Counted from the stretch's first letter, positions 2,863 to 52,170 are shown. The stretch: DNA of 56,795 bases from a candidate division Kazan bacterium (GCA_003647645.1 QMNG01000004.1:1-56795); one strand, 5' to 3'. Notes: generated by a model not told the origin, from the letters alone. A program made the numbers and translations.

Positions 2863-2990
2863 GCCGCATTTTGCTCGTCCAAAATGTGGCACAAAAGGGC
2901 GCCGCAGTTCGTCGAAGCTAACTAAGAGATTTATCTCATTGGCTAACGCTTCTCCTCCAATGCGGGTAGAAATCCAAGGAGGGGATTTTT
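2863..2990 (+). repeat. Dispersed structured element, short copy F
   Basis: GCCGCATTTTG/CAAAATGTGGC hairpin, AAAA, GGGCG pseudoknot arm, CCGCA..CTCCAA-TGCGG core; start nearly identical to copy at 41079. Confidence 0.7.
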
Positions 2991-3019
2991 TTATTCTTTT
3001 TTGATATGATTAGACTGTT

Positions 3020-3535
3020 ATGGTTCCTACATGGGATATAGTTTTACTAGCTTTTGGGGGCGCAAGCATCGTCTACGGTTTGATGTTGCGCGAGCGAGTG
3101 ATAGTAACCTTATTGGGGGCCTATGCTGCTATAGTGATAACCAACATTTGGGGAGTTGCGCTTTATGAAATAGTAACCAACCAGAGCGCGGCAGTATTAA
3201 GCGAACAATTGGTTAACACCAATAACATCTCCGTATTTACAATGCAGATGGTTATTTTTGCGGGGGTACTGTTGATTATTGCTCTTAAGGGCGGAGTGTT
3301 GATTCATCCAGAATCGCTTGGTACTGGAGTGATGTCGATGATTGTGCTGGTATTATATGGTCTGCTAAGTGCAACATTGATAGCTTCAGCAATATTGGGA
3401 TTTTTACCACAAGACCAACTTAATGTTGTCTATGAAGGCTCCAACATAGCTCGCTATTTAGTGGATTACCAAAACTGGGTTCTTATCGCGCCGCTTTTGG
3501 TAATGCTGGTTTCCGGTTGGGGGTCGAGAGAATAA
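3020..3535 (+). CDS. Multi-pass membrane protein (CvpA-like topology)
   Basis: 171 aa with about five hydrophobic helices. Confidence 0.7.
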   Translation: MVPTWDIVLLAFGGASIVYGLMLRERVIVTLLGAYAAIVITNIWGVALYEIVTNQSAAVLSEQLVNTNNISVFTMQMVIFAGVLLIIALKGGVLIHPESLGTGVMSMIVLVLYGLLSATLIASAILGFLPQDQLNVVYEGSNIARYLVDYQNWVLIAPLLVMLVSGWGSRE

Positions 3536-3574
3536 TGATTTGTCATTTTAGGCGTTTCATTTTAAAGTGTAGTC

Positions 3575-3967
3575 ATGCGGATACGCTTGTTAAATTTTGG
3601 CAAGGATAATATTGCTTGGCTTCAATGGGGCCGATTTAAACGGCGCGAGCAGAGTCTGTTCGTTTTTGTTTGGCTGTCGGCCGTATTGCACGTTATATTT
3701 TGGGTAATTTGGCATTTCTTCGTGGCGCCGTATCCCATCGCTCTAACCATTCCTTTGGCCACAAATTTGGGGATATTCAATTTCTTATATGATTATTTTT
3801 GGCCTCTGGGTAACACAGCTATTTTGATATTGAATACACTGCTAGCTTTCCAGATATACAAAAAGGATATCTTCGCCAGCTGGCTTTTAATTGGTGCTAA
3901 TATTTTCTTACAAATTTTGGCCTTAGCGATTACTCTTTTCCTCATATCGTTTAGTAGCTCATTGTAA
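3575..3967 (+). CDS. Hypothetical membrane protein
   Basis: 130 aa, three to four hydrophobic segments, 2 nt before the next ORF. Confidence 0.7.
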   Translation: MRIRLLNFGKDNIAWLQWGRFKRREQSLFVFVWLSAVLHVIFWVIWHFFVAPYPIALTIPLATNLGIFNFLYDYFWPLGNTAILILNTLLAFQIYKKDIFASWLLIGANIFLQILALAITLFLISFSSSL

Positions 3968-3969
3968 TT

Positions 3970-5199
3970 ATGATATTTTTCGAGTCAAATTTAATTCTTT
4001 ATTACTTTGGAATTTTCTTCACCTTGTATATAGGCGTCTTCTATCTGATTACATTATTTGAAAACAGAGAGAAAATTAGAGATCCTAAGGTTGGTAAGCT
4101 TTACACCCTTAGTATTATTGTGCCGGCGTTCAACGAGGCCAAAACCATTGGCAAGACTTTGGTATCTTTAAAGAATTTAAATTATCCCCAAGATAAAATA
4201 AAGATCATTGTGGTAGATGACGGCTCTACTGACAACACATATGAGATTGCCAGCAGATTTTCTGGCGTAAAAGTGATTAAAAAAGAAAATGGGGGCAAGG
4301 CCAGCGCTATTAATATTGGATTGAAAGAGGTTGGCACAGAGTTAGTAGCGGTGATGGACGCAGATTCGTTTGTAACTGAGCATGCCTTGTGGTCAATGGT
4401 GGGATACTTTAGAAATAAACGAACAATGGCCGTGACGCCGGCGTTGAAAGTTTATAGTCCCAAGGGTTTTTGGCAGGGAGTCCAATATGTCGAGTATCTT
4501 TTTTCTGTATTTTTCAGGAAGATGTTTTCGTTTCTAAATGGAGTGTATGTCACCCCGGGTCCGTTTTCGGTATATCGCAAAGAATTTTTTGACAAGTACG
4601 GCGATTTTCAGGAAAACAATATGAGTGAAGACCTGGAAGTTGCCTTAAGGATTCAATCTCATGATTATAAGATTGAAAATTCTATTAATGCCGAAGTATT
4701 CACTGTGGCTCCGAATAATTTTAAAGCTCTGCTAAAACAAAGAGTGAGATGGTATAGCGGAGTATTAAACAATCTTTATGCTTACCGCCATTTGTTCGGG
4801 TCTAGAAGGGGATATTTGGGGATATTTGTTTTGCCGGTAACACTTGTATCTATTGTTCTGGTTTTGGCGCTCTTGGGATATTATGGAGCAACGCTGTTTA
4901 TAAGTCTGTTAAAAAATCTTTATCAAATTAGGTTGGTCAGTTTTGATGTCATGGGTATAGCACAAGACTATCTTGCTAATTTTTCAGTGCTCAAATATAT
5001 TAGTCCAACCTTGGTACTGTTTGTTCTAACAATCAGCTTTACGGTAACAATATTCATTTTGTCTCGCATTTATTCACAGGATAAAGGCAAGGTCTTCGGT
5101 AGTTTTTTGATGTATGCATTGGTTTATGGCCCTATATTTGGCGTGATGTGGATTACTACCATAGCGCACAAGATTTTAAATCTTAAAATAAAATGGTAA
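3970..5199 (+). CDS. Processive family-2 glycosyltransferase (cellulose synthase/PNAG synthase-like)
   Basis: IIVPAFNE, DDGSTD, GKASA, DAD, SED and QRVRW motifs plus TM helices. Confidence 0.92.
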   Translation: MIFFESNLILYYFGIFFTLYIGVFYLITLFENREKIRDPKVGKLYTLSIIVPAFNEAKTIGKTLVSLKNLNYPQDKIKIIVVDDGSTDNTYEIASRFSGVKVIKKENGGKASAINIGLKEVGTELVAVMDADSFVTEHALWSMVGYFRNKRTMAVTPALKVYSPKGFWQGVQYVEYLFSVFFRKMFSFLNGVYVTPGPFSVYRKEFFDKYGDFQENNMSEDLEVALRIQSHDYKIENSINAEVFTVAPNNFKALLKQRVRWYSGVLNNLYAYRHLFGSRRGYLGIFVLPVTLVSIVLVLALLGYYGATLFISLLKNLYQIRLVSFDVMGIAQDYLANFSVLKYISPTLVLFVLTISFTVTIFILSRIYSQDKGKVFGSFLMYALVYGPIFGVMWITTIAHKILNLKIKW

Positions 5200-5855
5200 G
5201 TCGCAGGATAAACTATGTGAAGTTTGTTTTTGCCTTTCTCATTGCTGGCGCGATATTTTTTGGAGGCCTGTTCTTAGGTAGTCAGTTAACTTCTCTGCAG
5301 ATTCATAACATTACCAGCATTCAGGAAGATTTGAAAACATCACTGGCAAGTTTAGAGCTTCGTCATGATTTACTAAAACAAAATATTTGTGGAATATCTG
5401 ATTTTGGTTTGTTTGGAGCGGAACTGGGTGATTTAGGCAGGCAGCTAGCAGATGTGGAAAAGGGCTTTGGGAAAAATAAAGAGAACATTCTGAAACTCAA
5501 AGAACCATATTTCTTGCTGGAAATCCGTCATTTCTTATTATTGCAGGAGGCCAAAAACAAATGTGGCAATGATATTGATTTGGTTTTGTATTTTTATTCA
5601 AATGATCCCAAACAGTGCGAACAATGTGATGACCAAGGATATATTCTAAGCTATTTGCAGGACAAAATAGGCTACGAAAAAATTAAAATTTATTCTTTCG
5701 ATATTCGTTCCCAATCGCCGTCAGTCCAAACTTTAATGGATTTGTACAATGTTGAGAGAGTTCCGTTGGTGGTGATAAACGACAATGTTTACAATCAGTT
5801 TTTGACCCTTGAAGAAATTCAGGAAATCTTAGGGGTGGCAGATACTCTTGGTTAA
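5193..5855 (+). CDS. Membrane-anchored thioredoxin-fold protein
   Basis: N-terminal TM, LYFYS..CEQC motif, VP-LVVIND cis-Pro-like motif; overlaps GT2 stop. Confidence 0.7.
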   Translation: MVSRRINYVKFVFAFLIAGAIFFGGLFLGSQLTSLQIHNITSIQEDLKTSLASLELRHDLLKQNICGISDFGLFGAELGDLGRQLADVEKGFGKNKENILKLKEPYFLLEIRHFLLLQEAKNKCGNDIDLVLYFYSNDPKQCEQCDDQGYILSYLQDKIGYEKIKIYSFDIRSQSPSVQTLMDLYNVERVPLVVINDNVYNQFLTLEEIQEILGVADTLG

Positions 5856-6048
5856 AACTAAACATACAGAAAGTCTTAAAATAGTGTCTTGATTTTTGAT
5901 TATATCGGTTGCTAGAATCAAGTATTTATTTTATCTAGAGAATAACGCGCTAGATCATTTTACTTGTCTGAAAGCAGTTTTTATGATAGGTTGGTAACAA
6001 ACTTGTTCGTATTGATGAGTGTTCATTACCAAAAAGGAGGTGACTCTA

Positions 6049-6840
6049 ATGCCGAAATGTGCTGGTGGATGCGGTCGTGAGGTTGCCAGTGAGGGCGACT
6101 ACTGTAAGATTTGTGGTTATGGACAGTCAGATACTTTGAGAAGTAACCACAATGTTCAGCCCATTATTCCTGCGCAGGGGACAGATGAAGATTCTAACTC
6201 CCATCGGCTCTCTGAATTTCTTAAGGGAGGTATGTCTTCCGCAGCGAACCAAGGACCAGCTTATCGTGGGAGTGTTGGTGAAAGGATGGGAAAAATCATT
6301 GGACCCTTGGTTGGTGTTGTAGTAGTTTTAGTCATTGCGGGTTTTGTAGCTGCGGGCATCAAGATCACTGCAGAGACCGTTGGAGTGGTCTCCCAGGAAG
6401 TTGATGAGCAGATGAAGGAGAAAATCGAGAGAAAATTTAATCCGCCATCCTCAACATTCTCAGCTTCGTTTAAGGACAAAGGGGGCAATTATCGTGAAGT
6501 TCAGATGTCTCTGATAGCTGATCCCAGACCATATGACGGTAGCTGTCTCATCGTCAATATTGGTGAAACGGGTACAATTCGCGCCAGGGTTCTAGGTATT
6601 GAGGAGAAAGATTACTATATCAAGTGGATTCTCAAACCCCAGTTGGTTGGGATCACGGATTGGGAGCAAGTCGATCACAACACGATTAATGTTTCATTTA
6701 GCAAGAAGATTCCCTGGAAAGTTATTGGTGATAAAGACCCACGATCGCTGAACGGGAAGAACGGGTTTCGTGCAGAATTATACCTTCGGTCTGAACGGAG
6801 GTTGCTATGCACCTGCTGGATGGATGTTCAGTGCAATTAG
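6049..6840 (+). CDS. Hypothetical protein with N-terminal Cys-rich zinc-ribbon-like motif and one TM helix
   Basis: AAGGAGG SD before ATG 6049; CAGGC...CKIC; hydrophobic segment mid-protein. Confidence 0.7.
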   Translation: MPKCAGGCGREVASEGDYCKICGYGQSDTLRSNHNVQPIIPAQGTDEDSNSHRLSEFLKGGMSSAANQGPAYRGSVGERMGKIIGPLVGVVVVLVIAGFVAAGIKITAETVGVVSQEVDEQMKEKIERKFNPPSSTFSASFKDKGGNYREVQMSLIADPRPYDGSCLIVNIGETGTIRARVLGIEEKDYYIKWILKPQLVGITDWEQVDHNTINVSFSKKIPWKVIGDKDPRSLNGKNGFRAELYLRSERRLLCTCWMDVQCN

Positions 6841-7046
6841 CTGTATTGGTTCGTTGATAAAGGCCTTTGTAAAAGATACTTAGGCCTTTTTTATTGGCTG
6901 TCTGGGGTCAGCAATCCTGCATATTTTTGTTTATGTCGATTATTAAAATTAAATAACGTGTTTTATACCGAGGAATAATATATTAGTTAATTATCCAAGC
7001 GTTCCGGCATTATGGAATATAATCAGTTCCAAAATGCTCTACAGAG

Positions 7047-7075
7047 TTGACATTAGAAGAGTTATCCCTTAGCAT
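7047..7075 (+). promoter_or_regulatory. Putative sigma70 promoter of the 16S gene
   Basis: TTGACA-17 nt-TAGCAT. Confidence 0.55.
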
Positions 7076-7315
7076 AACTAACGGTATATTATAATCTTTT
7101 AAAAGGAGTAAATTACAAGGTTTCTGGCTTTCTTTTGATCTGATCAAAGGACTTAAGAAATCTGCCTGTCCCGACGCATTTCGGGGTCGGTTTTTATTCC
7201 TTACTACCAGCACTTTTCCATCTAGATAGTACTTAGAGAGTTTTAGTTTTTACTTTAACTTTTCGTAATTTTACGTTAACGTTAATCGTTTTTGAAACAT
7301 TTTTGTTTCAAAAAC

Positions 7316-8788
<1,473 letters not shown>

Positions 8789-8947
8789 TAGGGAGACCCA
8801 TATATTTGGCAGCTAGATTACTAGGTGTGCAAATATTAAAGGTTCTTACTAGAATCATTGGTCGAGATTTCGCTATATGCGAAATCAATTCTGCTGTACA
8901 GCAGAATCTCCGACTCTCTAAGTACTATCTGGGTGGATAAGTATCCT

Positions 8948-9144
8948 TCGGTACTTTGTCTTGCCAAAGTACCCAAAGCGTCTCCGCAGTCGCTCTCATT
9001 ATTCATCTAATAAAATCCCCTTACTGCTCTCGCCAAACTTGCCCTACGGGCTTCGGACAGATGGCTTCGCAACAGGGATTTTATTGATTCAGGACATTCG
9101 AGCTCCAATGCTCGATGGTTGGCTCCGCCAAAAGGAAGATATTA
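8948..9144 (+). repeat. Dispersed structured element, copy A
   Basis: GGTACTTTG/CAAAGTACC hairpin; long identical blocks shared with the reverse-strand copy at 51971-52170. Confidence 0.9.
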
Positions 9145-9187
9145 TTTAAAATAAAAACCACTCCCTGTTCGGGGTGATTTTTATTTT

Positions 9188-9309: not shown

Positions 9310-9385
9310 TGGTGGACCCGGGCGGACTCGAACCGCCTACCTCCGCATTGCAAATGCGACGTTCTACCGGGTGAACTACGGGCCC
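9310..9385 (-). tRNA. tRNA-Ala(TGC)
   Basis: Cloverleaf GGGCCCG...TTTGCAA...TTCGAGT...CGGGTCCACCA with G3:U70. Confidence 0.97.
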
Positions 9386-13186: not shown

Positions 13187-13217
13187 TGCTACTTTTTCCC
13201 AAAGTAACCAAAAGCTG

Positions 13218-13430
13218 TTGGCACTTTGTCTTGGCAAAGTGCCAAAAACCGTTTACGCATTCACTCTCGCTGTTAGCTATTAAAGAAATCTTTTCTCTGG
13301 CTTATCTCTAAACTCACCCCGATGTTCCACATCGGGATTTAGACATAGAGCACACTAGGGTGATAGATTTCTTTTATTCAATACGCTCGAGCTCAATGCT
13401 AGGGGTTGGCTTTGCCAAATAGAGGAAATA
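13218..13430 (+). repeat. Dispersed structured element, copy B (preceded by an extra first-hairpin-like unit at 13188-13214)
   Basis: GGCACTTTG/CAAAGTGCC, AAACTC-hairpin-TTAGACA, GAGCTCAATG, TTGGC-TTT-GCCAA. Confidence 0.85.
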
Positions 13431-13525
13431 CTATAAAAACTAATCGGCCCATCCACGGGCCGATAGATTCTCCCTGTTTTTTCCATGATTCATAATTCTC
13501 TATTCTCTTCTCTGTATGTTATATA

Positions 13526-14443
13526 CTATCTTCTGCGCCGGCTGTGGAAGGCGCGGTGGACGTCCTTCAGCTGGCGGTTAGTGATGTGGGTGTAGACTTG
13601 GGTAGTGGTAATAGAGGAGTGGCCCAGCAGGGCTTGGACGGAGCGGATGTCGGCTCCGTTTATTAACAAATCAGTAGCATAAGAATGGCGCAGGGTGTGA
13701 GGCGTTACTTTTTTCACTATGCCGGCTTTGGTAGCATATTTTTGTATAATTCGCTGAACACTGCGGGGGGTAAGGAATTTGGCATTGGAATTAATTCCAT
13801 GTGAAATAAACACATATTCATTGTTATCCTTGCGTTTTTCTAAGTATCGTCTGAGAGTTGTCTTGGCTTCGTCAGACATAAACACAATTCGAGGTTTGTC
13901 GCCTTTGCCCCGGACCATAAACTCTCCGCGTTGGAGGTTAATTTTCTCTTTTTTAAGGGCAGTTAACTCAGAAACTCGCAGGCCGGTAGAAAAAAGAGTC
14001 TGAAGAATGGCATAATCTCTTAAATGTTGAAGTTTATTATCTTTGGGTACAGCTTCAAATAACCGATCGAGTTCATAAATTTCCAAAAAATCAACTGATC
14101 GTGGCGGGGTTTTGGGCAGTTCTATTTTTTCTGCCGGCAGAGATTTGACATCATTCCTAGCGAGGAACTTTAAAAATGCTCTAAGTGCGATAATGTGGTA
14201 ATTCTGAGTAACAAGTTTTAAGCTCTTTCCACTTGCATCTTTATAGCGATTAAGCCATTGGCGATATTTGCGAACCAAGGGCAGATCAATTTGGGCGGGG
14301 GAGAGGTTCTGTTTGCCAGCGCGTTTGGCAAACTCCAAAAAGCGCATCAGATAATGGTGGTAGTTATTCAGTGTGCGCTGGCTGCGATTTTTCTCGATTT
14401 CCATATAATCGAGAAAATCATTTATGTAATTCTTAAATCTCAT
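13526..14443 (-). CDS. XerC/XerD-family tyrosine recombinase (start could also be 14473)
   Basis: TGLRVSEL, VRGKGDK, TPHTLRHSYAT, LLGH, TTQVYTH catalytic R-K-H-R-H-Y set. Confidence 0.93.
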   Translation of the reverse strand: MRFKNYINDFLDYMEIEKNRSQRTLNNYHHYLMRFLEFAKRAGKQNLSPAQIDLPLVRKYRQWLNRYKDASGKSLKLVTQNYHIIALRAFLKFLARNDVKSLPAEKIELPKTPPRSVDFLEIYELDRLFEAVPKDNKLQHLRDYAILQTLFSTGLRVSELTALKKEKINLQRGEFMVRGKGDKPRIVFMSDEAKTTLRRYLEKRKDNNEYVFISHGINSNAKFLTPRSVQRIIQKYATKAGIVKKVTPHTLRHSYATDLLINGADIRSVQALLGHSSITTTQVYTHITNRQLKDVHRAFHSRRRR

Positions 14444-14483
14444 GATTTCATCCCTTGCTATATTGTGCGACATTATACTAAAT

Positions 14484-14515
14484 AAAAAAAGAGGCTCCGA
14501 ACTAGTTCGGAGCCT
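14484..14515 (-). terminator. Intrinsic terminator
   Basis: 24-bp palindrome AGGCTCCGAACTAGTTCGGAGCCT followed by a T-tract on the minus strand. Confidence 0.7.
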
Positions 14516-14834
14516 AAGTGTCCGGCCACCAGATGATAACTGGCTGATTCTCAAGTAGAGGACAAGGCCCGATGACACCACTGAGAGAGGAAGAGCACTT
14601 GGGTAACTTCTGCCTTTGCCACCGTCCGTAAACGTGTGTCAGAAATATAGATTGGTGGTTGGCGCAGAGCTGATGGAGTTGTTCGTCACCAATCAGCCGG
14701 TGCACTTTGCAGTTGGCTATACTCTCGTGGCACTGAGCCATCATAAAAAGAACATTGTAAACATGGTTTGGTATCTGAGACCCAAACTTCGTAATGAATT
14801 CCATTAGGGTCACTGTGACACATCTCCTTTTCAA
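14514..14834 (-). CDS. Hypothetical protein (true start probably slightly downstream, after AAGGAG)
   Basis: Fills the intergenic gap, has an SD-like AAGGAG and its own terminator. Confidence 0.5.
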   Translation of the reverse strand: MKRRCVTVTLMEFITKFGSQIPNHVYNVLFMMAQCHESIANCKVHRLIGDEQLHQLCANHQSIFLTHVYGRWQRQKLPKCSSSLSGVIGPCPLLENQPVIIWWPDT

Positions 14835-36892: not shown

Positions 36893-36903
36893 ACTTTCTT
36901 TTC

Positions 36904-37130
36904 ACTACTTTTTAAAAAGTAGTATAAAACTTTATGCCAGTCAGCCTCTCTACGAACTAGTAGAGAATTTTTATGAAGGCTGACGCTAAACTCCCCCGAC
37001 AAGTCGGGGTCAAACAGTAGCTACGCTTCTATAAAAATTCTCTAAGTTCGTGACGCGCCGGCCTCCAATGGCTTGGATACTATAGCCAGAGTTCCAACGC
37101 GGGGTTATTTACTCTGCGAAAAGAAGGGAA
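36904..37130 (+). repeat. Dispersed structured element, copy G
   Basis: ACTACTTT/AAAGTAGT, AGAGAATTTTTAT/ATAAAAATTCTCT, AAACTC-CCCCGACAAGTCGGGG-TCAAACAG, CTCCAATGGC. Confidence 0.8.
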
Positions 37131-37189
37131 TTTATTGATGGTTTGTTTTGCCAAATAAAAGTTATGTTAGAATGGTATGTGGAGGAGAT

Positions 37190-40473: not shown

Positions 40474-41079
40474 ATGGCAGACAAAAAAGATACCACAGAG
40501 GAACAAGCAGCCGCTGATAGCGGGACCCCGCAGAACACGGTGGAGGAGAAAAAGGAGGAAGCCCCAAAGGAGGAACCTAAGGTCGAGTCCGGCTCCAGTT
40601 CTGGCGAAGCTACGCCGGACAAGGAAAAAGCAATGGTTGAGGAGCCCCAAGCTGAAGAATCTAAAGCTGAGCCGGCTAATCAAGTTGACACCAGCAAACT
40701 TTCCGATACGGCCAACAAAGTATTAGACATGGTTTCTGAAATGACTATATTGGAGCTGGCCGAACTAGTTAAGGTTCTAGAGGATAAGTTTGGAGTAAGC
40801 GCTGCTCCGGCTGTTGCAGCGGTAGCTGGCGGCGCGGCCGGCGAAGCGTCAGGCGAAACCGAGGGAAAAAGTACTTATAACGTCAATTTAACTGACACTG
40901 GCAGCAACAAAATCGGCGTGATCAAAGCAGTCCGTGAAGTTACAGAGCTGGGCTTGAAAGAAGCTAAAGATTTAGTTGAGGCTGCTCCCAAGCTTGTTCG
41001 CGAAAATGTCAAAAAGGAAGAAGCTGAAGAGATTAAGAAAAAGCTTGAAGCCGCTGGTGCCAAAGTGGAGTTAACTTAG
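40474..41079 (+). CDS. rplL: 50S ribosomal protein L7/L12 with long acidic N-terminal extension
   Basis: [39 protein letters not shown]; AGGAG SD before 40474. Confidence 0.95.
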
Positions 41080-41272
41080 CCGCATTTTGCGTGCCCAAAA
41101 CGCGGCGCAAAAGGGCACACCATTCACAAATTTATTAGTCAAAAAACAAAACTGCCTTACTGGCTATCGCTGAACTCGCTACGCTCGAACAGCAGCTTCG
41201 CCAACGGCAGTTTTGTAATTGACTGACATAATTTGCTCAATGGGGTATATTGGCTTCGCCAAGCGGAAGAGA
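41079..41272 (+). repeat. Dispersed structured element, copy C
   Basis: GCCGC..GCGGC hairpin, GTGCCC/GGGCAC, AACTC-GCTACGC-TCGAACAG, GCTCAATG, TTGGCTTCGCCAA. Confidence 0.88.
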
Positions 41273-41278
41273 TTTTTT

Positions 41279-42475: not shown

Positions 42476-45400
42476 ATGATAGATAAAAATATGGGGGAAC
42501 AAGTTGAAGGAGAGGATTTAACTTCGGTTGAAGATGAAAAAGAATCTACTCCGTCCATTCCCGAAAGGCCAATCGGGGACAAAATTGAGCTTGTTGAAAC
42601 TGTCGAAGATTCCGACAGACAGCTCTTTGATAAGGAATACAAAGGTATTTCTCGGGAGCGAATTTACGACGATGAACGCTTTTGGAATGATCCCAAATAT
42701 CTGTCAATGTTGAACAAAGCTGTATTTCAAAGCATTGTCAGCTATGAGCTATATGAGAAAAGAAAAATTAAGAAGAAGGACATTGCAATAATCGATATAG
42801 ATATTCCCGATTCTACTGTTGGTTTGGAAGTGGCCCTAGAAAAATTCGAGAGAGAAGATATCACCAGAACACCAGACATCAAAGCGGTGGAAGACCATAT
42901 TCCGCTACTTTTGACAGTTCATGATTCGGTTGTTGATGTGTTTTACCAATGCGGTGTTAAGGGAGATAAGTTTTTTGGAGATGGAGCCAGGGGCCTATGT
43001 GAAGGTGGTGTAGATCAAGCAGTAGCAACTGCTAATCTCTTAAAGGAGAGTTTATCCCAGTACGGTTTAGATGTCCGTGTTGGTATAGATGTTGGTGACG
43101 TGACAATTATAGGCTGTGGAAATGAGAAAACTAAAAAAGCCTTTTTGATGGGCGACACAGTCAAAAATGCCGAGGCTATTCAAAAACATGCCCGGGTCGG
43201 TGATATTGCAATGTCTTTAGAAGCTCAGAAGAAAAAAAGAGGCCAAGCAGAAACAGACCTTTTGGAATGGACAAAGTATAGAGAAATACTCATAGCCCCC
43301 GATGAAATAAGACGAGAGATTAAAGCCAGGGAGGCCTTTTTGCCTGCCTCGAGAGTCAGGGAATTAAGATATCAGTACTTGAGCGGAGAAGAGCTTAGCC
43401 CCAGTGTGATTGAGGTCTGCACTTTGGTGATTGATCTGCCGGACATTGAAGACCGGCCATTTGATGAAGCTAACAGAATAATAACGGAAATTTTTGAGAT
43501 TATTACGAATTCTGGGGGTGAAATAGATAAAACAGACGGCCGGAAAATTATGGCTAACTTTCTTGCTGGTCGGAGTGATTTTGACGGCGTTCAGGCAGGT
43601 ATTAGACTAGTCGAAATACTTAAGGGTCTGAATGTCCCATTTAATATTGCTGCTGCCAGATCGAATGCTTTATCCGTGGTTATGGGCGGGGACAGAACTG
43701 TCATTGGCAGAGTGGCCAATCTTGCCTATCGCGAAGTTGTCGACAGCCCTGCGGGAGTTTTAACGATTGATGAGGATTTGATGAGGCGGGTGGAAACTCA
43801 AATCAAAAAGGGTGAATCGATTGGTGTATCGGAATATAAGGGAATAGGTCGGCGCGAAAGATTCGTTGTCTCCGAACTAAAGGGCTGGTATGAACTTGCC
43901 AGGGCAGAGAGGCTTTTGTTTAGACAGGATGAACTCGATGAGTTAAGCAAGGAATGCGGCCTTGTAGAGCAATCTGGCGGTCGCTGTCTGGCGATTGCTG
44001 GGAGACAAGGGTTTGGTAAATCTGCGCTTGTGGCTGAATTTTTGGCGATGAAAAAGAGAGAGGGATATAGCACGTATTTTGGCAGAGCGGAAGAATATAC
44101 GTCAAAACAGCAATTCGCGGTTTGGAGAGATTTGTTTAAGCGTATTTTTAATTTAGAAGAGATGAGCACAGAGGAAAGAACTGAAATGATACTGGGGAAA
44201 TTCCCACATTTGAGTGAGTCGCTGGCATTACTCGATCCAATTTTGGGAACCAAATTCGAAAGGACTACTTTAGTCAAATCATTGGAAACCCGTCCCAAGG
44301 ATATGAGAGAGATGCAGGCAGAAATAGTGGTTGAATTGCTCAGTACTCTATCCCGGAACAGCTCCAATGCGGCGGTAGTGCTGCTCGAGGATATGCAGTT
44401 TTTTGATGAAGATTCTCAAAGTCTACTGATAGAGGTTTTATATAAGATCAAGGATTCTAACTCTCTTTTAATTGTCACTACCAGACCGCATGATCTGGAA
44501 GGAACATTAAATCTGCCCCCGGAAGAATTTGGAAAGCTGGAAAATGTTGGAAAGATGGAAATAGGGAGCGTCCTACCGGTATTTGACGACGAAAAGTGGG
44601 AAAGGGTCAAGGAGGACTGGTGGACTGCAGCCAATTTGTGTGTACCACTGGACAGAACAGACTTTGAACAGGACGGTGATTTCTTCAAAAGAATGTTTAG
44701 GAAAATCTATGAGGAGACCGAGGGTAATTTTCGGGCGCTTCAAACCTATTTGCGTTCATGGACGGTCTACGGAGTTCAAAAAGGGTATTTTGAGGCCAAG
44801 GATAAAGTAGTTGATGGGAAATTGCAGACTGTTTATTCATTAGTTCGCGACAAAGATGGAAATCCAATGAGAATATCAGACGAGAATTTTAAAAAACTGG
44901 GTGATGTCAGCGGAATTGAAACAAGGCGCTTCCATAACTTGGAGTTGCCTAAGGTAAAAAATATATTGTTGAGTGCGTCTGTTATTGGTTCGAGCTTTTC
45001 CATAGATGAGTTGTTGTATGTTAGCGGCGGTCTGAATGAGGAAGAAGTTATCGGGTTGTTGGGAGAAGCTGAAAGGCGGGGATTCATCCGCCACATTGGA
45101 GGCGACATGTATGCTTTTGCCAACAATGAGATCAGCACAGCCATATATAGGACCCGCTCTGAGGAATTAGATCCAACTCTGCAGTATCAACATCGTTTGT
45201 TGGGTCAATACTACCACACAAAAAATCCTGACGATTTACACAAAATCGCCTTTCATCTTCGGCATAGCGATGATTATTTGGCAGCGCTTGAGGTCTTGGA
45301 TAAACTTGTACGACAATCCAAGAATTCTTTTTCATGGGAAACAATGCTGAATAGCGTTAACCATTCCAGCAAAATATTTGCCAAGATAAAAGGAGGCGGC

Positions 45401-46657
45401 GGGGAATGGCGAGCCATTCCGCCGTGGAGCAACGAGCAATTTGTTCAGTCGGAACCACAGAGCAAACTTGAAAAAGATAAGTTGATCAGTGGGGAAATTA
45501 ACAGATTATTGATAGCCTCAATAACATTACGACGGTTTAGGCGCGGAGACATTATGGAACCTGTTGATTTGGCACTGGATGAGTTTAAGAATTTAGAGAA
45601 CAAAGACAGAGAGTTGCCCACGAAAGAATTGATTACTTGGTGTAGGATCCTGATTTGTAAGGCATGCAACTATGATTTACTGAAGCAGATTGATAAGGCT
45701 GATGAAATATTTGAGCAACTCTTCAATATCACAAATTACAAATTTTGTCTTGGTGATGACAGTCCGGATGCAACCAACAGCGCGTTACACAAAATGATGT
45801 CAGACTTTTTATATTTTTACGGACTGCACTTATCAAAAAAGGGTCAGTATGAGTCTGCTATTGGTGAACTGGAAAAGGCGCTGGAATTCAGTACGGATCC
45901 GATCCAGGAGGCCAGGATAAGAAATGGTATCGGTGTCGAGAATATGAGAATCGGTGAGCTGGAACGGGCAAAACAGGAGTTTAAAACTTTAATATCATTA
46001 GCCGGTCAAAACCGGGATTTGAAAAAAAATCTGAATATATATTGGATGAACTTGGGCGAGGTGTATGAGCGTTTTGGAGAATTTGAGCTGGCGATGGATT
46101 GTTTTGATAAATCTATTGAGGCTGCAGACAAAGTGCAAAATGTTACAAGCCGACTTGGCACACGTGCTAATCAAGGTTTTGTAAGAAAATTTCAAGGAAG
46201 ATTTAAGGATGCTCTGCATATTTACCAAGAAGTTATCCAGCAAGCCGGTCGGAGGGGTATCGGAGAACTAACATCATTGTGCAAATCGGAATCAGTTTTT
46301 TGCTATTTTGAAATAGGAGATTATACAGAAGCCAGAAGAGCCATCAACAAATTGCAGGGCACAGAATTTCAGGGCAGAGGACTCACATTGACAGCCATTG
46401 AAAAGTTGCTGCTGGGAGAAAATGACACTGATTTGCTGGAAGATATATTCCTAAGAGGCAGTAAAAAAATGTTACAGGCAAAAATAGACCAACTTCATAT
46501 TGCGTTTGACAACTATTATTTTGGGAAAAAGCTACTACATCTGGGGCATCGGGATTTGGGCAAACAGCACCTATTGCAAGCCAGGGAATATTACCAAAGG
46601 AAACAAGTGCCAATGTTAATCTCTGAAATTGAGGCACTGCTTGAAGAACTTGTATAA
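42476..46657 (+). CDS. Tandem class III cyclase + STAND/AAA ATPase + TPR protein
   Basis: KFFGDG, VRVGIDVG, IGRVANLAYR, Walker A GRQGFGKS, Walker B LLEDMQ, TEGN, C-terminal TPR-like repeats. Confidence 0.85.
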   Translation: MIDKNMGEQVEGEDLTSVEDEKESTPSIPERPIGDKIELVETVEDSDRQLFDKEYKGISRERIYDDERFWNDPKYLSMLNKAVFQSIVSYELYEKRKIKKKDIAIIDIDIPDSTVGLEVALEKFEREDITRTPDIKAVEDHIPLLLTVHDSVVDVFYQCGVKGDKFFGDGARGLCEGGVDQAVATANLLKESLSQYGLDVRVGIDVGDVTIIGCGNEKTKKAFLMGDTVKNAEAIQKHARVGDIAMSLEAQKKKRGQAETDLLEWTKYREILIAPDEIRREIKAREAFLPASRVRELRYQYLSGEELSPSVIEVCTLVIDLPDIEDRPFDEANRIITEIFEIITNSGGEIDKTDGRKIMANFLAGRSDFDGVQAGIRLVEILKGLNVPFNIAAARSNALSVVMGGDRTVIGRVANLAYREVVDSPAGVLTIDEDLMRRVETQIKKGESIGVSEYKGIGRRERFVVSELKGWYELARAERLLFRQDELDELSKECGLVEQSGGRCLAIAGRQGFGKSALVAEFLAMKKREGYSTYFGRAEEYTSKQQFAVWRDLFKRIFNLEEMSTEERTEMILGKFPHLSESLALLDPILGTKFERTTLVKSLETRPKDMREMQAEIVVELLSTLSRNSSNAAVVLLEDMQFFDEDSQSLLIEVLYKIKDSNSLLIVTTRPHDLEGTLNLPPEEFGKLENVGKMEIGSVLPVFDDEKWERVKEDWWTAANLCVPLDRTDFEQDGDFFKRMFRKIYEETEGNFRALQTYLRSWTVYGVQKGYFEAKDKVVDGKLQTVYSLVRDKDGNPMRISDENFKKLGDVSGIETRRFHNLELPKVKNILLSASVIGSSFSIDELLYVSGGLNEEEVIGLLGEAERRGFIRHIGGDMYAFANNEISTAIYRTRSEELDPTLQYQHRLLGQYYHTKNPDDLHKIAFHLRHSDDYLAALEVLDKLVRQSKNSFSWETMLNSVNHSSKIFAKIKGGGGEWRAIPPWSNEQFVQSEPQSKLEKDKLISGEINRLLIASITLRRFRRGDIMEPVDLALDEFKNLENKDRELPTKELITWCRILICKACNYDLLKQIDKADEIFEQLFNITNYKFCLGDDSPDATNSALHKMMSDFLYFYGLHLSKKGQYESAIGELEKALEFSTDPIQEARIRNGIGVENMRIGELERAKQEFKTLISLAGQNRDLKKNLNIYWMNLGEVYERFGEFELAMDCFDKSIEAADKVQNVTSRLGTRANQGFVRKFQGRFKDALHIYQEVIQQAGRRGIGELTSLCKSESVFCYFEIGDYTEARRAINKLQGTEFQGRGLTLTAIEKLLLGENDTDLLEDIFLRGSKKMLQAKIDQLHIAFDNYYFGKKLLHLGHRDLGKQHLLQAREYYQRKQVPMLISEIEALLEELV

Positions 46658-46703: not shown

Positions 46704-46904
46704 TTAACTTGGGTCGTAAACATCATGCTCACCTCCGATATGCATTGGAGCGGCTGGTTCTCCAACTATCGGTTCTTCCGCAACCGGCCCCAGCCGGCTC
46801 ATGGCCAGAGAATATCCAAACAAGACACCTAACAGTAATACGATAGCCAGCACAACAATCAGCTCCGCTTCGAGCCAACGAACAGCTTTTTCATTTAATT
46901 TCAT
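46704..46904 (-). CDS. Small single-TM protein
   Basis: 66 aa, one hydrophobic helix. Confidence 0.6.
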   Translation of the reverse strand: MKLNEKAVRWLEAELIVVLAIVLLLGVLFGYSLAMSRLGPVAEEPIVGEPAAPMHIGGEHDVYDPS

Positions 46905-47000
46905 GATAAAACCATTAATGATATAAATTCATCTGTATTATATCCCGAACCGAGTCAGATTTCCAAAAAATATTCCGTCATAGGGGTTTGAAAAAATAAG

Positions 47001-47921: not shown

Positions 47922-48007
47922 TCCGTTTGGAAATTTTTGTTTTTATCGAAGCAAGCAAAAGCTTCATTTGCTTTTTATTATATCATAAAAATATGTTTTC
48001 GTCAAGT

Positions 48008-48041
48008 AAATCAACGGCTCACGATGAGCCGTTGATTTTTT
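48008..48041. other. Strong inverted repeat between divergent genes (terminator-like)
   Basis: AAATCAACGGCTCA-CGA-TGAGCCGTTGATTT. Confidence 0.6.
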
Positions 48042-48066
48042 CGCCCTAGTATTAGATAATTTGTCT

Positions 48067-49149
48067 ATGTTATATGCGGTAATTGTAGCTGGCGGACAAG
48101 GCACTCGTCTGTGGCCTGTAAGTCGCAGAAACAATCCCAAACAGTTATATTCCTTTGATGGGGGCGAGACGCTGTTGCAAAGAACCTACAAGCGGATGCT
48201 TAAAGTTGTTCCGCGTGAACAGATTTTTATCGAAACAAACAAAGATTACAAAAAGGAAATTTTAGAACAACTGCCTAATATAGATAAAACCAACATAATT
48301 TTGGAACCAGCTTCGCGCAACACTGCTCCGGCTGTGGGACTGGCCGCAGCCGTGATTCAAAAGCTCGACGCTGATGCCACTATGATCAATGTTTGGGCGG
48401 ATCATTATATCGCAGATGAGAAACAATATAAGAACAAAATTTTGTTGGCTGATAAGCTGTTGCAAAAGCATCCGGGGTATTTGGTTAATATCGGATCTGA
48501 GCCGAAATATCCAGCTACAGCTTTTGGTTATTTAAAAACTAGCGGCAGGTTGGGTGTTATTAATGGTGAGGTCATATATAAGGTTTCTCAGTTTGTCGAA
48601 AAACCAAACCTTACTGCAGCTAAAAAATATGTTAGGGCCGGCAACTATTATTGGAACACAGCCCTTTTTGTCTGGAAGGTAAATACTCTTCTTGAGATGT
48701 ATCAGCAATATAAGCCGAAGATTTACGACGGTTTAATGAAAATTCAGGCTGCATGGGGCACGAATGATCAGGACAAAACAATAAACAGAATTTTTCCCAA
48801 ATTGGAGAAGGTAGCCATCGATTACGCTATATTTGAGAAGGCCAGAAACATTGCTCTAATTCCCGCTGATATTGGCTGGCGGGATATTGGCAGCTGGAGG
48901 GATGTGTATGATATTTTAAGCAAGACTGGCGGAACAATAGTGCAGAAGGGAAAAGTTCGAGCAATCCAGACAACTGACTCTTTGATTTTTAATGAGAATA
49001 AGGATAAATTAGTGGTTGTAATTGGTATGAACAATGTTGTAATAGTCGATACACAAGATGCTTTGCTGGTTATGCAGAAAGATCGGGACCAAACTATTAA
49101 GAACGTAATTAAAGAGATTGAAATTTCGAAAGAAGCAAAATTCTTATGA
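48067..49149 (+). CDS. manC: Mannose-1-phosphate guanylyltransferase
   Basis: AGGQGTRLWPVSR..PKQ, EPASRNTAPA, FVEKP, IDYAIFEK, WRDIGSW. Confidence 0.93.
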   Translation: MLYAVIVAGGQGTRLWPVSRRNNPKQLYSFDGGETLLQRTYKRMLKVVPREQIFIETNKDYKKEILEQLPNIDKTNIILEPASRNTAPAVGLAAAVIQKLDADATMINVWADHYIADEKQYKNKILLADKLLQKHPGYLVNIGSEPKYPATAFGYLKTSGRLGVINGEVIYKVSQFVEKPNLTAAKKYVRAGNYYWNTALFVWKVNTLLEMYQQYKPKIYDGLMKIQAAWGTNDQDKTINRIFPKLEKVAIDYAIFEKARNIALIPADIGWRDIGSWRDVYDILSKTGGTIVQKGKVRAIQTTDSLIFNENKDKLVVVIGMNNVVIVDTQDALLVMQKDRDQTIKNVIKEIEISKEAKFL

Positions 49150-49224
49150 ACTGAAATTAAGCATTGTGAATCAAAAATCAAAGAAAAATAAAAACACAAA
49201 TTTTAATTCGTAATCCTAGCTGAG

Positions 49225-50580
49225 ATGACAAAGCAGGTTTGGTTAATTAGTTTTATCGTTGTGGTGCTATTGGGAGCGCTGGTTATTGATTTTCCAGCTA
49301 TTGCAGAGTTTGTTGGATTCCCTGAAGGACAATTTCAAATAAGGCAAGGCCTGGACTTAAGCGGGGGAACCCATTTGGTATATCAAACAGACCTTACGGA
49401 TGTCGAACCAAAGGAGCGGTCCGACTCAGTTTCTGGTGTAGTTGAAGTGATTCGTAGACGAGTTGATGCTCTGGGAGTAGCCGAGCCGTCCATTCAAAAA
49501 ACCAGGGACAATTCGCGAGTCATCGTTGAATTGCCTGGAATTGATGATGTCAACGAAGCCATTTCATTGATCGGAGAAACAGCTGAGCTAGAATTCCGTG
49601 AGGGCATAGTTGGCAAGAGCATAGATGAAAACGGTTCTATGATTTCGAGCAACTATGACGACTGGGCAGATGTGGGCCTAACCGGGGCTAATTTTGTAAA
49701 GGCCGAAGTCCAGTTTGCCCAGGGCAGTACTGTTATTGTTTCGGAGCCGGAGGTAGTGATCAAATTTGACGCAGAAGGACGCCAGAAATTTGAGGAAGTT
49801 ACGGGGAGGAATATTAATAAGCCGCTGGCAATATTTTTAGACAAGCAGCTGCTTTCGGCACCCAAGGTAAAATCCAGAATAAATAGTGAAACCGCTGTTA
49901 TCTCGGGTGGTTTTGATCTACCCGAAGCAAAACGGTTAGCTATTCAGTTGAATGCCGGTGCTTTACCAGTGCCAATTGAACTGATTGCACAGAATAATAT
50001 TGGGGCGACACTAGGCGCTGAATCAATTCAGAAAAGTATTATCGCCGGACTGATTGGTTTATTGATGGTGATGCTATTTATGATTATCTACTATCGCCTG
50101 CCGGGTTTGGTCGCTGCGTTGGCTTTATCCATATATGCGTTAATTACTCTAGCCATATTCATTGCTATTCCAGTTACCCTGACATTGGCTGGCATCGCTG
50201 GTTTTGTACTGTCCGTCGGCATGGCCATTGATGCCAACATTTTGATATTTGAAAGAATGAAAGAGGAAGTTAGAAGGGGTAGTACTGTTAGATTGGCGAT
50301 TGATACCGGCTTTAAACGAGCGTGGACATCAATTCGCGATTCTAATATTGCCTCGTTGATTACTGTGGTAATTTTGTATTTTGGAGCCTCCGGCCTAATT
50401 CGCGGTTTTGCTGTAACATTGGGCATTGGTATTTTGGTCAGTTTGTTCACAGCCCTGACCTGTACTCACATCGTTTTACAGCTGCTAGCCAGCACCGGGT
50501 TGAGAAATAAGGCATCGCTGTGGATGGGGGGAGCATTAATAGGCCAGGATCAAAAGTCAGAAATTAAGAATCAAGCATAA
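49225..50580 (+). CDS. secD: Protein translocase subunit SecD
   Basis: GLDLSGG, RVDALGVAEP, AGALP, GMAIDANILIFER, DSN. Confidence 0.97.
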   Translation: MTKQVWLISFIVVVLLGALVIDFPAIAEFVGFPEGQFQIRQGLDLSGGTHLVYQTDLTDVEPKERSDSVSGVVEVIRRRVDALGVAEPSIQKTRDNSRVIVELPGIDDVNEAISLIGETAELEFREGIVGKSIDENGSMISSNYDDWADVGLTGANFVKAEVQFAQGSTVIVSEPEVVIKFDAEGRQKFEEVTGRNINKPLAIFLDKQLLSAPKVKSRINSETAVISGGFDLPEAKRLAIQLNAGALPVPIELIAQNNIGATLGAESIQKSIIAGLIGLLMVMLFMIIYYRLPGLVAALALSIYALITLAIFIAIPVTLTLAGIAGFVLSVGMAIDANILIFERMKEEVRRGSTVRLAIDTGFKRAWTSIRDSNIASLITVVILYFGASGLIRGFAVTLGIGILVSLFTALTCTHIVLQLLASTGLRNKASLWMGGALIGQDQKSEIKNQA

Positions 50581-50681
50581 TAAAGGAAGGGAATCTGTCT
50601 CGTTGGAAACGCACGAAAACGGGCTGACAGATAAAATAACAAAAACAGCTGTTAACAAACATAGCAAAAATTTCTAACAGG

Positions 50682-51623
50682 ATGAACATTATTGGAAGAC
50701 GCAAAATTTGGTTTACACTCTCAAGCATTTTAGTCACCGCCAGTGTTATAGCGATGATTATATTTGGATTCAGGACCGGTATTGACTTTGCGGGTGGGAC
50801 ACTTATTGAGATCGAAGTCGGAGATATTGATGCTGGGTTGTTGCCAGAGAATGTCGGTTTGGAAAATTATTTAGAATCTGCTTATTTAGAGACGACTGGC
50901 GAGGAGACCGTAGCCCAACCGTCCGGTCCGGCCACTACTTTGGTTGATGATGCCGGCAAAAAGGTTAGTGGAACCCGCTGGATATTTAAAAGTAAGATTA
51001 TTACCAACGATCAAAAAAATGCTTGGATTGAAGCAATTAGCGAAACCTTGCCTAAACTTTCAGAACTGAGATTTGAAATAGTTAGTCCGGCTATTGGCGC
51101 AGAGGTTGTTAATAAAGCGATTTTTGCTGTGGCTTTGGCGGTTATCGCAATTTTACTATATGTAGCTTTTTCGTTTCGCAGAGTGCCCAGGCCAACCAGC
51201 TCGTGGCGGTTTTCTCTGGCAGCGATTGCCGCTCTGGCCCATGATGTTATTATTTTGCTGGGCGCCTACGCAGTTATGGGTTATTTCTTCGGTGCCGAGG
51301 TGGATGGGATGTTTATTGTAGCGCTGTTGACCCTGCTGGGATTTTCTGTACATGACACGATTGTGACCTTTGACAGGTTACGGGAGAATTTAATTAAACG
51401 CGGCGGCTCTGAATTTGAAAAAACTGTTAATGACAGCGTTGTTGAAACAGTTACACGATCGCTTAATACCTCCGTCACTTTGATCTTCGTGTTGTTGGCT
51501 ATGGTATTGATGGGCGGCAGTACGATTACATTCTTTACTTTGGCGCTACTAGTCGGCGTAGCCATCGGAACCTATTCTTCGATCTTTGTGGCAGCGCCGT
51601 TATTGCTACTAGGTAGAAAATAA
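50682..51623 (+). CDS. secF: Protein translocase subunit SecF
   Basis: GIDFAGG, AHD, GFSVHDTIVTFDR.RE, RSLNTS, GTYSSIF. Confidence 0.97.
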   Translation: MNIIGRRKIWFTLSSILVTASVIAMIIFGFRTGIDFAGGTLIEIEVGDIDAGLLPENVGLENYLESAYLETTGEETVAQPSGPATTLVDDAGKKVSGTRWIFKSKIITNDQKNAWIEAISETLPKLSELRFEIVSPAIGAEVVNKAIFAVALAVIAILLYVAFSFRRVPRPTSSWRFSLAAIAALAHDVIILLGAYAVMGYFFGAEVDGMFIVALLTLLGFSVHDTIVTFDRLRENLIKRGGSEFEKTVNDSVVETVTRSLNTSVTLIFVLLAMVLMGGSTITFFTLALLVGVAIGTYSSIFVAAPLLLLGRK

Positions 51624-51626
51624 GCC

Positions 51627-51676
51627 CGTCATTCCCGCTCCTCTCATCGTCATTTCCGCGCAGGCGGGAACCCAGA
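51627..51676. repeat. GTCATTCCCGC...GCGGGAA short palindromic repeat (1.5 tandem units)
   Basis: CGTCATTCCCGC and CGTCATTTCCGCGCAGGCGGGAACCCAG. Confidence 0.65.
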
Positions 51677-51693
51677 CATTAAAATATTTTTTT

Positions 51694-51910
51694 GCCACCC
51701 ATTTGCTTGTCCAAACGGGTGGCGCCCAAAAGACACCCTGTTCACAAATTGTGAGCCAATTTAAGCAAAATCACCCTATCTGGATTTAACCGCAAACTCG
51801 TCAGAGCTAAAGCTCTTCCTCAAACAGTGCTCATCCAGAATAGGGTGATTTTACTATTGGCTTACACAATTTGCTCAATGGGAAATGTTTGCTTCGCAAA
51901 GTGGAGGAGG
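51694..51910 (+). repeat. Dispersed structured element, copy D
   Basis: GCCACCC/GGGTGGC, TGTC/GACA, AAAATCACCCTAT/ATAGGGTGATTTT, AAACTC-hairpin-TCAAACAG, AATTTGCTCAATGGG. Confidence 0.88.
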
Positions 51911-51970
51911 TTTTTATATCTTATCCAATGGCTTAGGGGTTTGCTTTGTAAAGGAGAGGAAATTATTCGG

Positions 51971-52170
51971 ATAATATCTTCCTCTTGGCATTAGCCAACA
52001 ATCGAGCATTGGAGCTCGAATGTCCTGAATCAAGCCAATCGCTTTAATCAGCGTGTTCACTGTTTGAGCGAAGCGAGTTTGGTAATAAGCAGATAAAGCA
52101 ATTGACTTAGATGAATAATGAGAGCGACTGCGGAGGCGGTTTGGGTACTTTGCCAAGACAAAGTACCGAA
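51971..52170 (-). repeat. Dispersed structured element, copy E
   Basis: Reverse complement shares CTCCGCAGTCGCTCTCATTATTCATCTAA and GATTCAGGACATTCGAGCTCCAATGCTCGAT with copy A. Confidence 0.9.

Follow-up and report, generated by a model that had tools for sequence, protein, structure and literature searches.

The REP unit is a short palindrome of about 20-40 nt (~35 nt) with a conserved sequence and associated RAYT transposases, and the REP/BIME repeats of enterobacteria are scattered outside genes, for the most part downstream of them, appear as hairpins in transcripts, form mosaics, often occupy shared positions and are non-essential. In these respects they resemble a family of folded elements described here, seven copies of which lie in a stretch of 56,795 nucleotides from a candidate division Kazan bacterium (GCA_003647645.1, QMNG01000004.1:1-56795, contig C4 of its genome; this whole stretch is referred to below as the window). 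Unlike REP, the present unit is ~200 nt long, has at least eight helices and is conserved in shape rather than in sequence (median pairwise identity 0.51), and the Y1 transposase, found in five of the 26 genomes of the class, does not track the family. We tentatively read the element as a class-specific, structure-constrained repeat of 3' untranslated regions (3' UTRs) or intercistronic spacers, which would be co-transcribed with the gene before it and comparable to REP/BIME and BOX.

A second group of described repeats, BOX of the pneumococcus, ERIC, Correia, NIME of Neisseria and bcr of the Bacillus cereus group, is likewise modular, intergenic, 100-200 nt long, able to fold as RNA and situated in transcribed spacers; some members are RNase III substrates or affect the stability of mRNA, and compensatory changes have been reported for some bcr groups. 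The Kazan element differs from them in that its sequence resembles none of the named families searched and that it has no terminal inverted repeats, its divergence within a genome is far higher, and its conserved apical and junction loops and fixed rod length bring it closer to a dedicated structured RNA than to a repeat.

Integron attC sites are 57-141 bp long, carry R''/L''/L'/R' boxes and stand in cassette arrays served by the IntI integrase. They share with the present element stems that vary yet still pair, fixed unpaired bases, a position 3' of and co-oriented with a gene, and strand specificity; however, our element is longer, is dispersed after housekeeping genes instead of being arrayed after cassettes, and comes with no dedicated integrase that we could find, the one tyrosine recombinase checked being universal in the class. 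Identity with attC was rejected, as neither the length nor the dispersed placement after core genes fits. Finally, HEARO/omega-RNA, OLE, GOLLD, ROOL and raiA also have a large multi-helix fold supported by covariation and no assigned function, some of them being multi-copy and associated with mobile elements. The present element matches none of these and is set apart by its 20-30 copies per genome, at gene 3' ends, which were seen convincingly in one small class only. With regard to IS200/IS605-derived elements (PATE, omega-RNA or reRNA), for which one would expect a TnpA, TnpB or IscB gene and a match to the HEARO or omega-RNA models, TnpA (Y1) is largely absent from that class and Rfam 15 gives no HEARO match in the window.

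Distribution of the family

A search of the host genome (1.137 Mb in 138 contigs, 88% complete) with sequence motifs and nhmmer found ~21 full copies plus fragments. A covariance model, R1 (213 positions, 52 pairs), was built from 19 aligned genome copies, the helices being taken from per-sequence folds, and it recovers 23 copies in the genome at E <= 6e-8 and one further at 0.11; seven of the 23 fall within the 5% of the genome that the window makes up. Within the window there are exactly seven R1 matches, at E values of 9e-20 to 3e-46, and no eighth, and they coincide with the seven copies that had been listed in an initial annotation made from the sequence alone, which confirms that observation.

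The class comprises 26 genomes in two families and R1 matches 22 of them, with 2-33 copies per genome. Most of the element-bearing genomes have 11-33 copies in 0.5-0.8 Mb, which from the copy counts amounts to roughly 1% of the genome, the exceptions being G021 with two copies and G003 (65% complete) with six. Four genomes have no copy at all, namely G001 (85% complete), G010 (96%), G012 (83%) and G022 (88%). Outside the class, 144 sampled genomes of other Patescibacteria families were searched with 15 candidates scored per genome under strict filters; 139 have no match, and in each of the other five there is one weak match (E from 4e-7 to 7e-6), which in some cases extends over the rod only. 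R1 was built from one genome only and used for all searches, and distant relatives may escape it. The earlier suggestion that other phyla may hold known relatives of the repeat is not supported, the search, which was limited to Patescibacteria, having given nothing beyond these five matches.

The initial annotation could assign the element to no named family and pointed to Rfam as the place to check this, and the statement stands: the whole window gives only the 16S rRNA and six tRNAs in Rfam 15 at the gathering score, and 651 nt around copies 6 and 7, searched at E up to 10, give three matches of 12-16 bits that are at chance level. Copy 2 has no blastn match in plasmid and phage collections. 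No description of the element was found in full-text searches of the literature, the supplementary candidate lists of PMC5737381 and PMC8040213 lying outside that search; apart from those lists, the TM7 motif in PMC5737381 is lysM-TM7 alone, which is a 5'-UTR motif, and the tandem-array cluster of Patescibacteriota in bioRxiv 10.64898/2026.10.21.760802 is distinct from the present element. The family is real and, among the genomes searched, convincingly found in one class only, and it appears to be undescribed.

Structure and covariation

The median length of the element is 200 nt. From 5' to 3' it consists of a P1 hairpin, an A-rich linker and a closing helix P2 (CRCAGU with AAUGYG) that encloses an irregular rod with a conserved apical loop, RAACUC-[variable hairpin]-UCARACA; the rod between the P2 strands is nearly constant in length (median 121 nt, interquartile range 117-126.5). 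The consensus of 107 copies keeps the AAA linker, UCR after the P2 5' strand, AAAUY/RnUU in the rod, AACUC/UCARACA, ACR and YC.AUG, so that the apical motif, YC.AUG and UCR, which the initial annotation had described as fixed, all hold. The four stem pairs that it quoted are present in the sequence and are paired in single-sequence folds.

Copy 5 (41076..41275, + strand; R1 161.8 bits, fold z = -3.5) serves as the exemplar. It follows rplL, the gene for L7/L12 (Pfam), with P1 starting at the stop codon of that gene, and it ends 4 nt before the ATG (41279) of a TGT gene (Pfam). The P1 hairpin lies at 41079..41106; in the 107 copies this first helix is 98% paired and 9/9 of its pairs have changed on both sides. 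The 5' strand of P2, CCAUU at 41120..41124, pairs in the single-sequence fold with 41239-41243 (AAUGG, within GCTCAATGG), and in helix 2, which is P2, 5/5 pairs have changed on both sides across the same copies. The apical core, GAACTC-[GCTACGC]-TCGAACA, occupies 41172..41191 and its consensus, AACUc ... UcaRACA, is conserved at 75-90% or more in the 107 copies. It is followed, still on the + strand, by a TTGGC-TTC-GCCAA hairpin predicted by folding at 41250..41262 and a purine-rich trailer at 41263-41275 on its 3' side. The initial annotation had such a TTGGC-NNN-GCCAA hairpin as usual and the purine-rich tail as part of the element; neither point carries over to the family, the hairpin (helix 9) being an optional, local feature with letters in only ~26 of the 107 aligned copies and the tail lying outside the unit common to copies.

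Single-sequence folds of four window copies have the same rod-like shape, with z values of -2.6 to -7.3 against dinucleotide shuffles, and folds of this kind give a common structure in all 21 full-length genome copies. When 53 copies are aligned to R1, pairing is seen in 83% of cells as against 37-47% with slid partners, and 47/52 pairs have changed on both sides; with 107 copies from six genomes the values are 81% against 32-46% and 49/52, and there are 1190 doubly changed cells where slid partners give 149-261. None of 500 shuffles reached the observed covariation, which excludes chance. Both alignments were fitted to R1, which favours R1, and mutual information, for which the structure is not used, provides a partial check: 22 of its 25 top column pairs in the 107 copies are pairs of the model. 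The same analysis gave no convincing non-nested covarying pair that would point to a pseudoknot. At the 21 best-paired positions G-U and U-G together number 116 and A-C and C-A 37 on the given strand, about 3:1, and this excess identifies the given strand as the one that folds, be it as RNA or as single-stranded DNA. The proposal of a selected fold of one strand is supported by the covariation, by the helices recovered through mutual information and by this ratio.

The flanks show a bias in base composition only, without cognate pairing. The 30 nt 3' of P2 are 62% purine, and the possibility that a pyrimidine-rich 5' flank closes the element with this tail was rejected, as cognate flanks form no more favourable duplexes than non-cognate flanks do (mean energies of -6.9 vs -7.2, -9.1 vs -9.4 and -13.3 vs -13.6 kcal/mol; median rank ~50/103). 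A Shine-Dalgarno role for the tail fits copy 5 only, where an ATG follows 4 nt on; it is not general, as the gene beyond the element is convergent in at least seven copies of the genome. An intrinsic terminator, a GC-rich hairpin with a U tract directly behind it, is not consistently found at the 3' end of the element, the scan giving a separate site after copy 2 and weak sites of 5-6 bp inside copies 5 and 6, and copy 5 runs directly into the next gene.

Placement and orientation

Placement was examined in 79 copies from four genomes, for which a co-oriented open reading frame (ORF) of >=80 aa ending <=450 nt upstream was the criterion. Such an ORF precedes 71 of them, which bears out the position 3' of genes that had been noticed in the window. 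A Pfam scan covered 64 of these 71 ORFs (the seven omitted were short or >190 nt away) and gave domains in 47, all of them belonging to ordinary housekeeping proteins, including SecF, MraY, DnaJ, RecO, L1, L7/L12, FtsZ, GreA, LepA, TopA, LeuRS, penicillin-binding proteins and HtrA. Several copies abut the stop codon of the upstream gene. Several others are at convergent gene ends, and for this reason the purine-rich tail is not a general ribosome-binding site. Furthermore some copies lie between genes that in the element-free genome G010 are 8-14 nt apart in an operon-like arrangement, for example after the transpeptidase gene of the mraY cluster; copies in such spacers must be read through or transcription must restart. 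No conserved promoter was found upstream of P1, either in the flanks as read or in the terminator scans.

Along the chromosomes the copies are mainly on one strand (20/21 in G007, 28/33 in G002, 16/19 in G008 and 20/21 in G006). The GC skew of G008 has an unusual asymmetric profile, being about +0.2 over 20-300 kb and near zero elsewhere, with no clear replication origin or terminus; most + strand copies of this genome lie in the high-skew part.

Shared sites and exchange between copies

It was observed in 26 of 63 checks (41%) that the orthologous upstream gene in another genus has a copy at the same site, the chance rate of such sharing being, by our own estimate, a few percent; 17 further site queries had no orthologue and are outside the 63. 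At the SecF and MraY sites there is a copy in all four genomes compared. Same-site copies have identities of 0.44-0.68, with scattered ranks, against the median of 0.51 for pairs in the whole family, and are no closer than random pairs; by this measure copies at shared sites are not sequence orthologues.

Many copies have their closest relative in their own genome, as is the case for 18/23 copies in G000, 14/19 in G008 and 13/16 in G016, and for fewer in G007 (9/21) and G002 (8/22). Pairs at 0.92-0.95 identity are found between distant loci in G008, G002 and G016, and in G008 two of these pairs contain tracts, of 219 and 168 nt, that are 98% identical. Both tracts end at the 3' strand of P2 and have different 5' limits, one starting upstream of P0, a small preceding hairpin, and the other starting inside P1 and leaving a mismatched, chimeric P1. 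At the junctions of these two pairs, which were read in detail, no flanking direct repeats, target duplications or terminal inverted repeats were seen, and a miniature inverted-repeat transposable element, with its fixed ends, terminal inverted repeats and target-site duplication, was rejected on these junctions. The common 3' and differing 5' limits fit gene conversion of a copy already in place better than they fit the insertion of a unit whose ends are fixed. These observations indicate that copies within a genome exchange sequence and undergo concerted evolution, and gene conversion between copies would also account for copies 2 and 7 of the window (overall identity 0.78), which, as read from the sequence, have an almost identical outer scaffold and an unrelated inner stem.

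In many copies a GC-rich hairpin (AAGCGC-loop-GCGCTTGACC type) stands 5-10 nt before P1, for example at L040-L046 and on contigs C1, C2 and C14. It is included in one of the two 98%-identical conversion tracts and may for that reason be an optional 5' module of the element; like the element it is missing from G010.

A proposed co-transcribed module and the case against it

Our preference for a 3'-UTR or intercistronic module comes from the placement inside transcription units, including spacers of 8-14 nt in element-free species. Under this reading the copies would be transcribed as the 3' UTR or the intercistronic part of the mRNA of the upstream gene, and the element would be a punctuation module that acts in cis, its conserved loops and long duplex being what host factors recognise. 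A plausible role would be as a site for double-strand-specific processing or as a protective barrier at the 3' end, either of which would uncouple the fates of neighbouring cistrons, and gene conversion would keep copies alike in shape and, within a genome, partly in sequence as well.

A number of observations weigh against this reading. G010, which is 96% complete, belongs to the genus of G008 and is collinear with it, has no copy at all. The flanking genes of all 19 G008 copies were located in G010; at nine loci with short spacers in G008 (297-714 nt) the spacer of G010 is 8-270 nt long in eight and longer in one, and at the remaining loci whole extra segments of G008 are missing. The alignments show a clean absence with no remnant, and the search for empty sites in relatives that the initial annotation had proposed yielded cleanly empty syntenic loci. 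Since these flanking genes are found in G010 without the element they work without it, and the set as a whole is dispensable. G012, G001 and G022 likewise have no copies; in these other element-free genomes secF is followed either by an ordinary terminator hairpin or by the next gene. The elements also travel with other repeat modules that are missing from G010 as well, a pattern expected of selfish repeats; the accompanying GTCATTC...GAATC hairpin repeats, counted with a loose pattern, number 20 in G000, 44 in G008 and 2 in G010. Of the 63 sites checked, 37 are not common to genera, which speaks of turnover. At least eight of the 79 copies have no co-oriented upstream gene, and several G007 copies are antisense between two genes of the opposite strand and still in the chromosome-wide orientation, which fits a bias between DNA strands as well as it fits transcription. 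Finally, terminator-like sites are not consistently in or beside the element.

The GTCATTC-N-GAATC hairpin stands between the end of the gene and the element, often with a TATAAT-like box and a T-rich run behind it, both in G008 spacers and at 51625-51670 of the window; the window's own variant at 51625-51670 was missed by the loose pattern.

A possible selfish repeat

Dispensability, the company of other modules in mosaics and copying within genomes make it nearly as likely that the element is a selfish non-autonomous repeat, the fold of which, as single-stranded DNA or RNA, would be needed by a trans-acting enzyme for copying, and the loss of which would cost the host nothing. Selection for propagation, and not for a function in the host, would then maintain the structure; we consider this possible, if somewhat doubtful. 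It would readily explain a family that is wholly absent from four of 26 genomes (among them a syntenic member of the genus of G008 in which the spacers are minimal), the near-identical pairs at distant loci of one genome, the large share of copies with their best match at home in G000, G008 and G016, the 37 sites that genera do not share, the mosaics with other modules and the chromosome-wide orientation bias. However, the recent pairs share a 3' and not a 5' limit, and one tract starts from inside P1, which fits gene conversion; the junctions read have neither terminal inverted repeats nor target duplications; 26 of the 63 sites are common to genera; and a median pairwise identity of only 0.51 implies that most copies are old. 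The initial annotation had suggested a non-autonomous mobile element, a ribozyme or a 3'-UTR regulator, and whilst the selected fold and the 3' placement behind these suggestions have held, a classical non-autonomous transposon is disfavoured by the rarity of Y1, the want of a common 5' end and the shared sites.

Nor does any enzyme track the family. A contrast of ORFs present in G008 and G000 and missing from G010 gave 34, of which 27 were scanned against Pfam, and several of them (GluRS, S21, YqeY) look like gaps in the G010 assembly. The Y1 transposase (PF01797) was rejected, being found in five of 26 genomes and within family f1 in G000 only, with control genomes positive. The same applies to a PaaX/Cas2-like protein, found in only 14/26 class genomes, to the reverse transcriptase (RT), found in 18/26 including three of the four element-free genomes (G012, G001 and G022) and not found in the element-bearing G015 (96% complete), G023 and G021, and to the Xer-type recombinase, found in 25/26 including all four element-free genomes. 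Small GIY-YIG ORFs come nearest to the distribution of the element and co-occur with it as a selfish repeat might lead one to expect (24/26 genomes, none in G010 and G012 and a single weak match each in G001 and G022), but they are a loose correlate only and were rejected as a required partner, and no physical linkage to the copies was apparent, judged by eye from coordinate lists. No protein checked qualifies as a required partner.

The GIY-YIG nuclease ORFs are multi-copy and ~90-130 aa long, some with internal stops; they number 1-11 per element-bearing genome and in the Kazan genome are on contigs C2, C3, C6 and C30. The single-copy Xer-type recombinase gene is matched in two pieces ~1.26 kb apart, in one frame of ~740-750 aa, at G016:C4:82233-84428 and G024:C14:3334-5502, which suggests that it carries an in-frame insertion in these two genomes; in both of them an RT gene adjoins it.

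A possible stand-alone RNA or DNA site

We think it unlikely that the element is a stand-alone structured RNA in 20-30 paralogous versions, for example a self-cleaving or self-processing ribozyme or the RNA of a ribonucleoprotein working through the junction and the apical loop. Invariant unpaired nucleotides combined with freely varying helices are typical of ribozymes and protein-binding RNAs, and the element has such nucleotides at both ends of a rod of fixed length, with helices free to vary. The strand-specific signal and the upkeep of the family at roughly 1% of genomes of 0.5-0.8 Mb agree with a stand-alone RNA, as do the copies that are antisense to both neighbours and would need transcription of their own. 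The failure to find a conserved promoter upstream of P1 and the several copies that abut a stop codon argue the other way, as do the lack of any match to a ribozyme family in Rfam 15 (chance-level only at E up to 10), the dispensability of the whole set in G010 and the fact that no covarying pseudoknot was detected. In its boldest form, which seems to us improbable to a like degree, this would be a large structured RNA of a new class that has a biochemical activity of its own, for example self-processing or ribonucleoprotein assembly at mRNA 3' ends, present as 20-30 fast-diverging, gene-converted paralogues per genome, specific to this one class of ultra-small Patescibacteria and taking up ~1% of the genome.

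Some copies are neighbours of diversity-generating retroelements (DGRs). At 9/14 of the RT loci checked there is a copy on the same strand as the RT gene, 1.8-3.1 kb upstream of it and just before the DGR target gene (2/2 loci in G008, 1/1 in G007, 2/3 in G002, 1/1 in G016, 1/3 in G013, 1/1 in G014, 1/1 in G018 and 0/2 in G006). One of these, L163:1700-6300 (G008 221.7-226.3 kb), is a confirmed DGR, with a 129-nt variable-repeat/template-repeat (VR/TR) pair at 82% identity and the RT downstream, and at two G008 loci the element and the DGR are absent together from G010 (4427 vs 12 nt and 3083 vs 18 nt). The neighbourhood association is real but partial, and the element was rejected as a DGR component, its presence not being tied to the RT. 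These loci, together with the attC-like logic of structure kept over sequence, fixed unpaired bases and a co-oriented position 3' of genes, would suit a folded single-strand recombination or landing site in DNA, one that would mark the boundaries of genes and take up cassettes, DGRs for instance, but this is less likely still, as the genes on either side are not cassettes but housekeeping core genes whose order is conserved, the sole recombinase checked is universal in the class with element-free genomes included, ~200 nt exceeds the attC range, and the copies are dispersed and not arrayed.

Copies in the window

The upstream genes that had been named for six of the copies are borne out, DnaJ, RecO, L1, L7/L12 and SecF by Pfam and the 16S rRNA gene by its end at 8787. 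Copy 1 (2860..2988, + strand; R1 72.8 bits, E 9e-20) is a short form that starts at the stop codon of dnaJ. Of the usual layout it retains P1, the linker and the closing helix, which here encloses a short inner hairpin in place of the long rod with its apical core; the claim that this copy is without the central module is confirmed by an end-to-end R1 alignment with the central part deleted. Its 3' part (CTCCTCC...GGAGGGG, then a T-run) looks like an intrinsic terminator.

Copy 2 (8947..9144, + strand; R1 152 bits) is 160 nt 3' of the 16S rRNA gene (7316-8787, Rfam) and is followed by a terminator-like hairpin at 9159-9176, found by the terminator scan. There is no 23S rRNA match after the 16S gene in the window, where copy 2, this hairpin and a tRNA on the opposite strand (9313-9385) are found instead, and from this arrangement the rRNA genes appear to be unlinked.

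Copy 3 (13217..13431, + strand; R1 157.6 bits) begins 30 nt past recO (Pfam RecO) and is convergent with a Xer-type tyrosine recombinase gene on the - strand (13529-14581, Pfam Phage_integrase). Directly 5' of it, at 13187..13214 (+), an extra P1-like hairpin and CCAAAAG linker can be read, so by sequence the 5' module is duplicated here; a doubled P1-like hairpin also precedes copies on contigs C5 and C64 of the genome. Copy 4 (36901..37133, + strand; R1 84.9 bits) begins 8 nt past rplA (L1, Pfam), has an additional insertion in its 3' half and has a dCMP deaminase gene (Pfam) downstream.

Copy 6 (51691..51913, + strand; R1 152.7 bits, fold z = -7.3) begins 67 nt past secF (Pfam SecD_SecF_C). 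Copy 7 (51972..52170, - strand; R1 161.8 bits, fold z = -5.0) is convergent on copy 6 and has no co-oriented gene upstream. Between the two, at 51924..51969 (+), a CCAATGG, a small hairpin and a purine tail may be a 3' fragment, which is weakly indicated by nhmmer (E = 3.2) and by reading the sequence and has no R1 match.

Elsewhere in the window, 42476-46654 (+) encodes a protein of 1393 aa with AAA_16 (STAND-type NTPase) and TPR domains; its counterpart in G008 is 27% identical and has a weak match to a cyclase domain, and no homologue was found in G010.

Significance

Patescibacteria genomes are among the smallest and most gene-dense known. Small and gene-dense as they are, the genomes of most members of this class still carry 11-33 copies of an elaborate fold of 200 nt. 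They provide a natural experiment in which a shape is kept without its sequence, copies are homogenised within genomes, and one lineage has shed all copies with its gene order kept. Should the element act on mRNA, post-transcriptional 'punctuation' would come into view for the first time in these uncultured bacteria; should it be selfish, it would be an example of how minimal genomes can harbour a lasting repeat that has no recognisable transposase. In either case RNA annotation gains, with the covariance model, a family that had not been catalogued, and the model also draws attention to a consistent proximity to diversity-generating retroelements.

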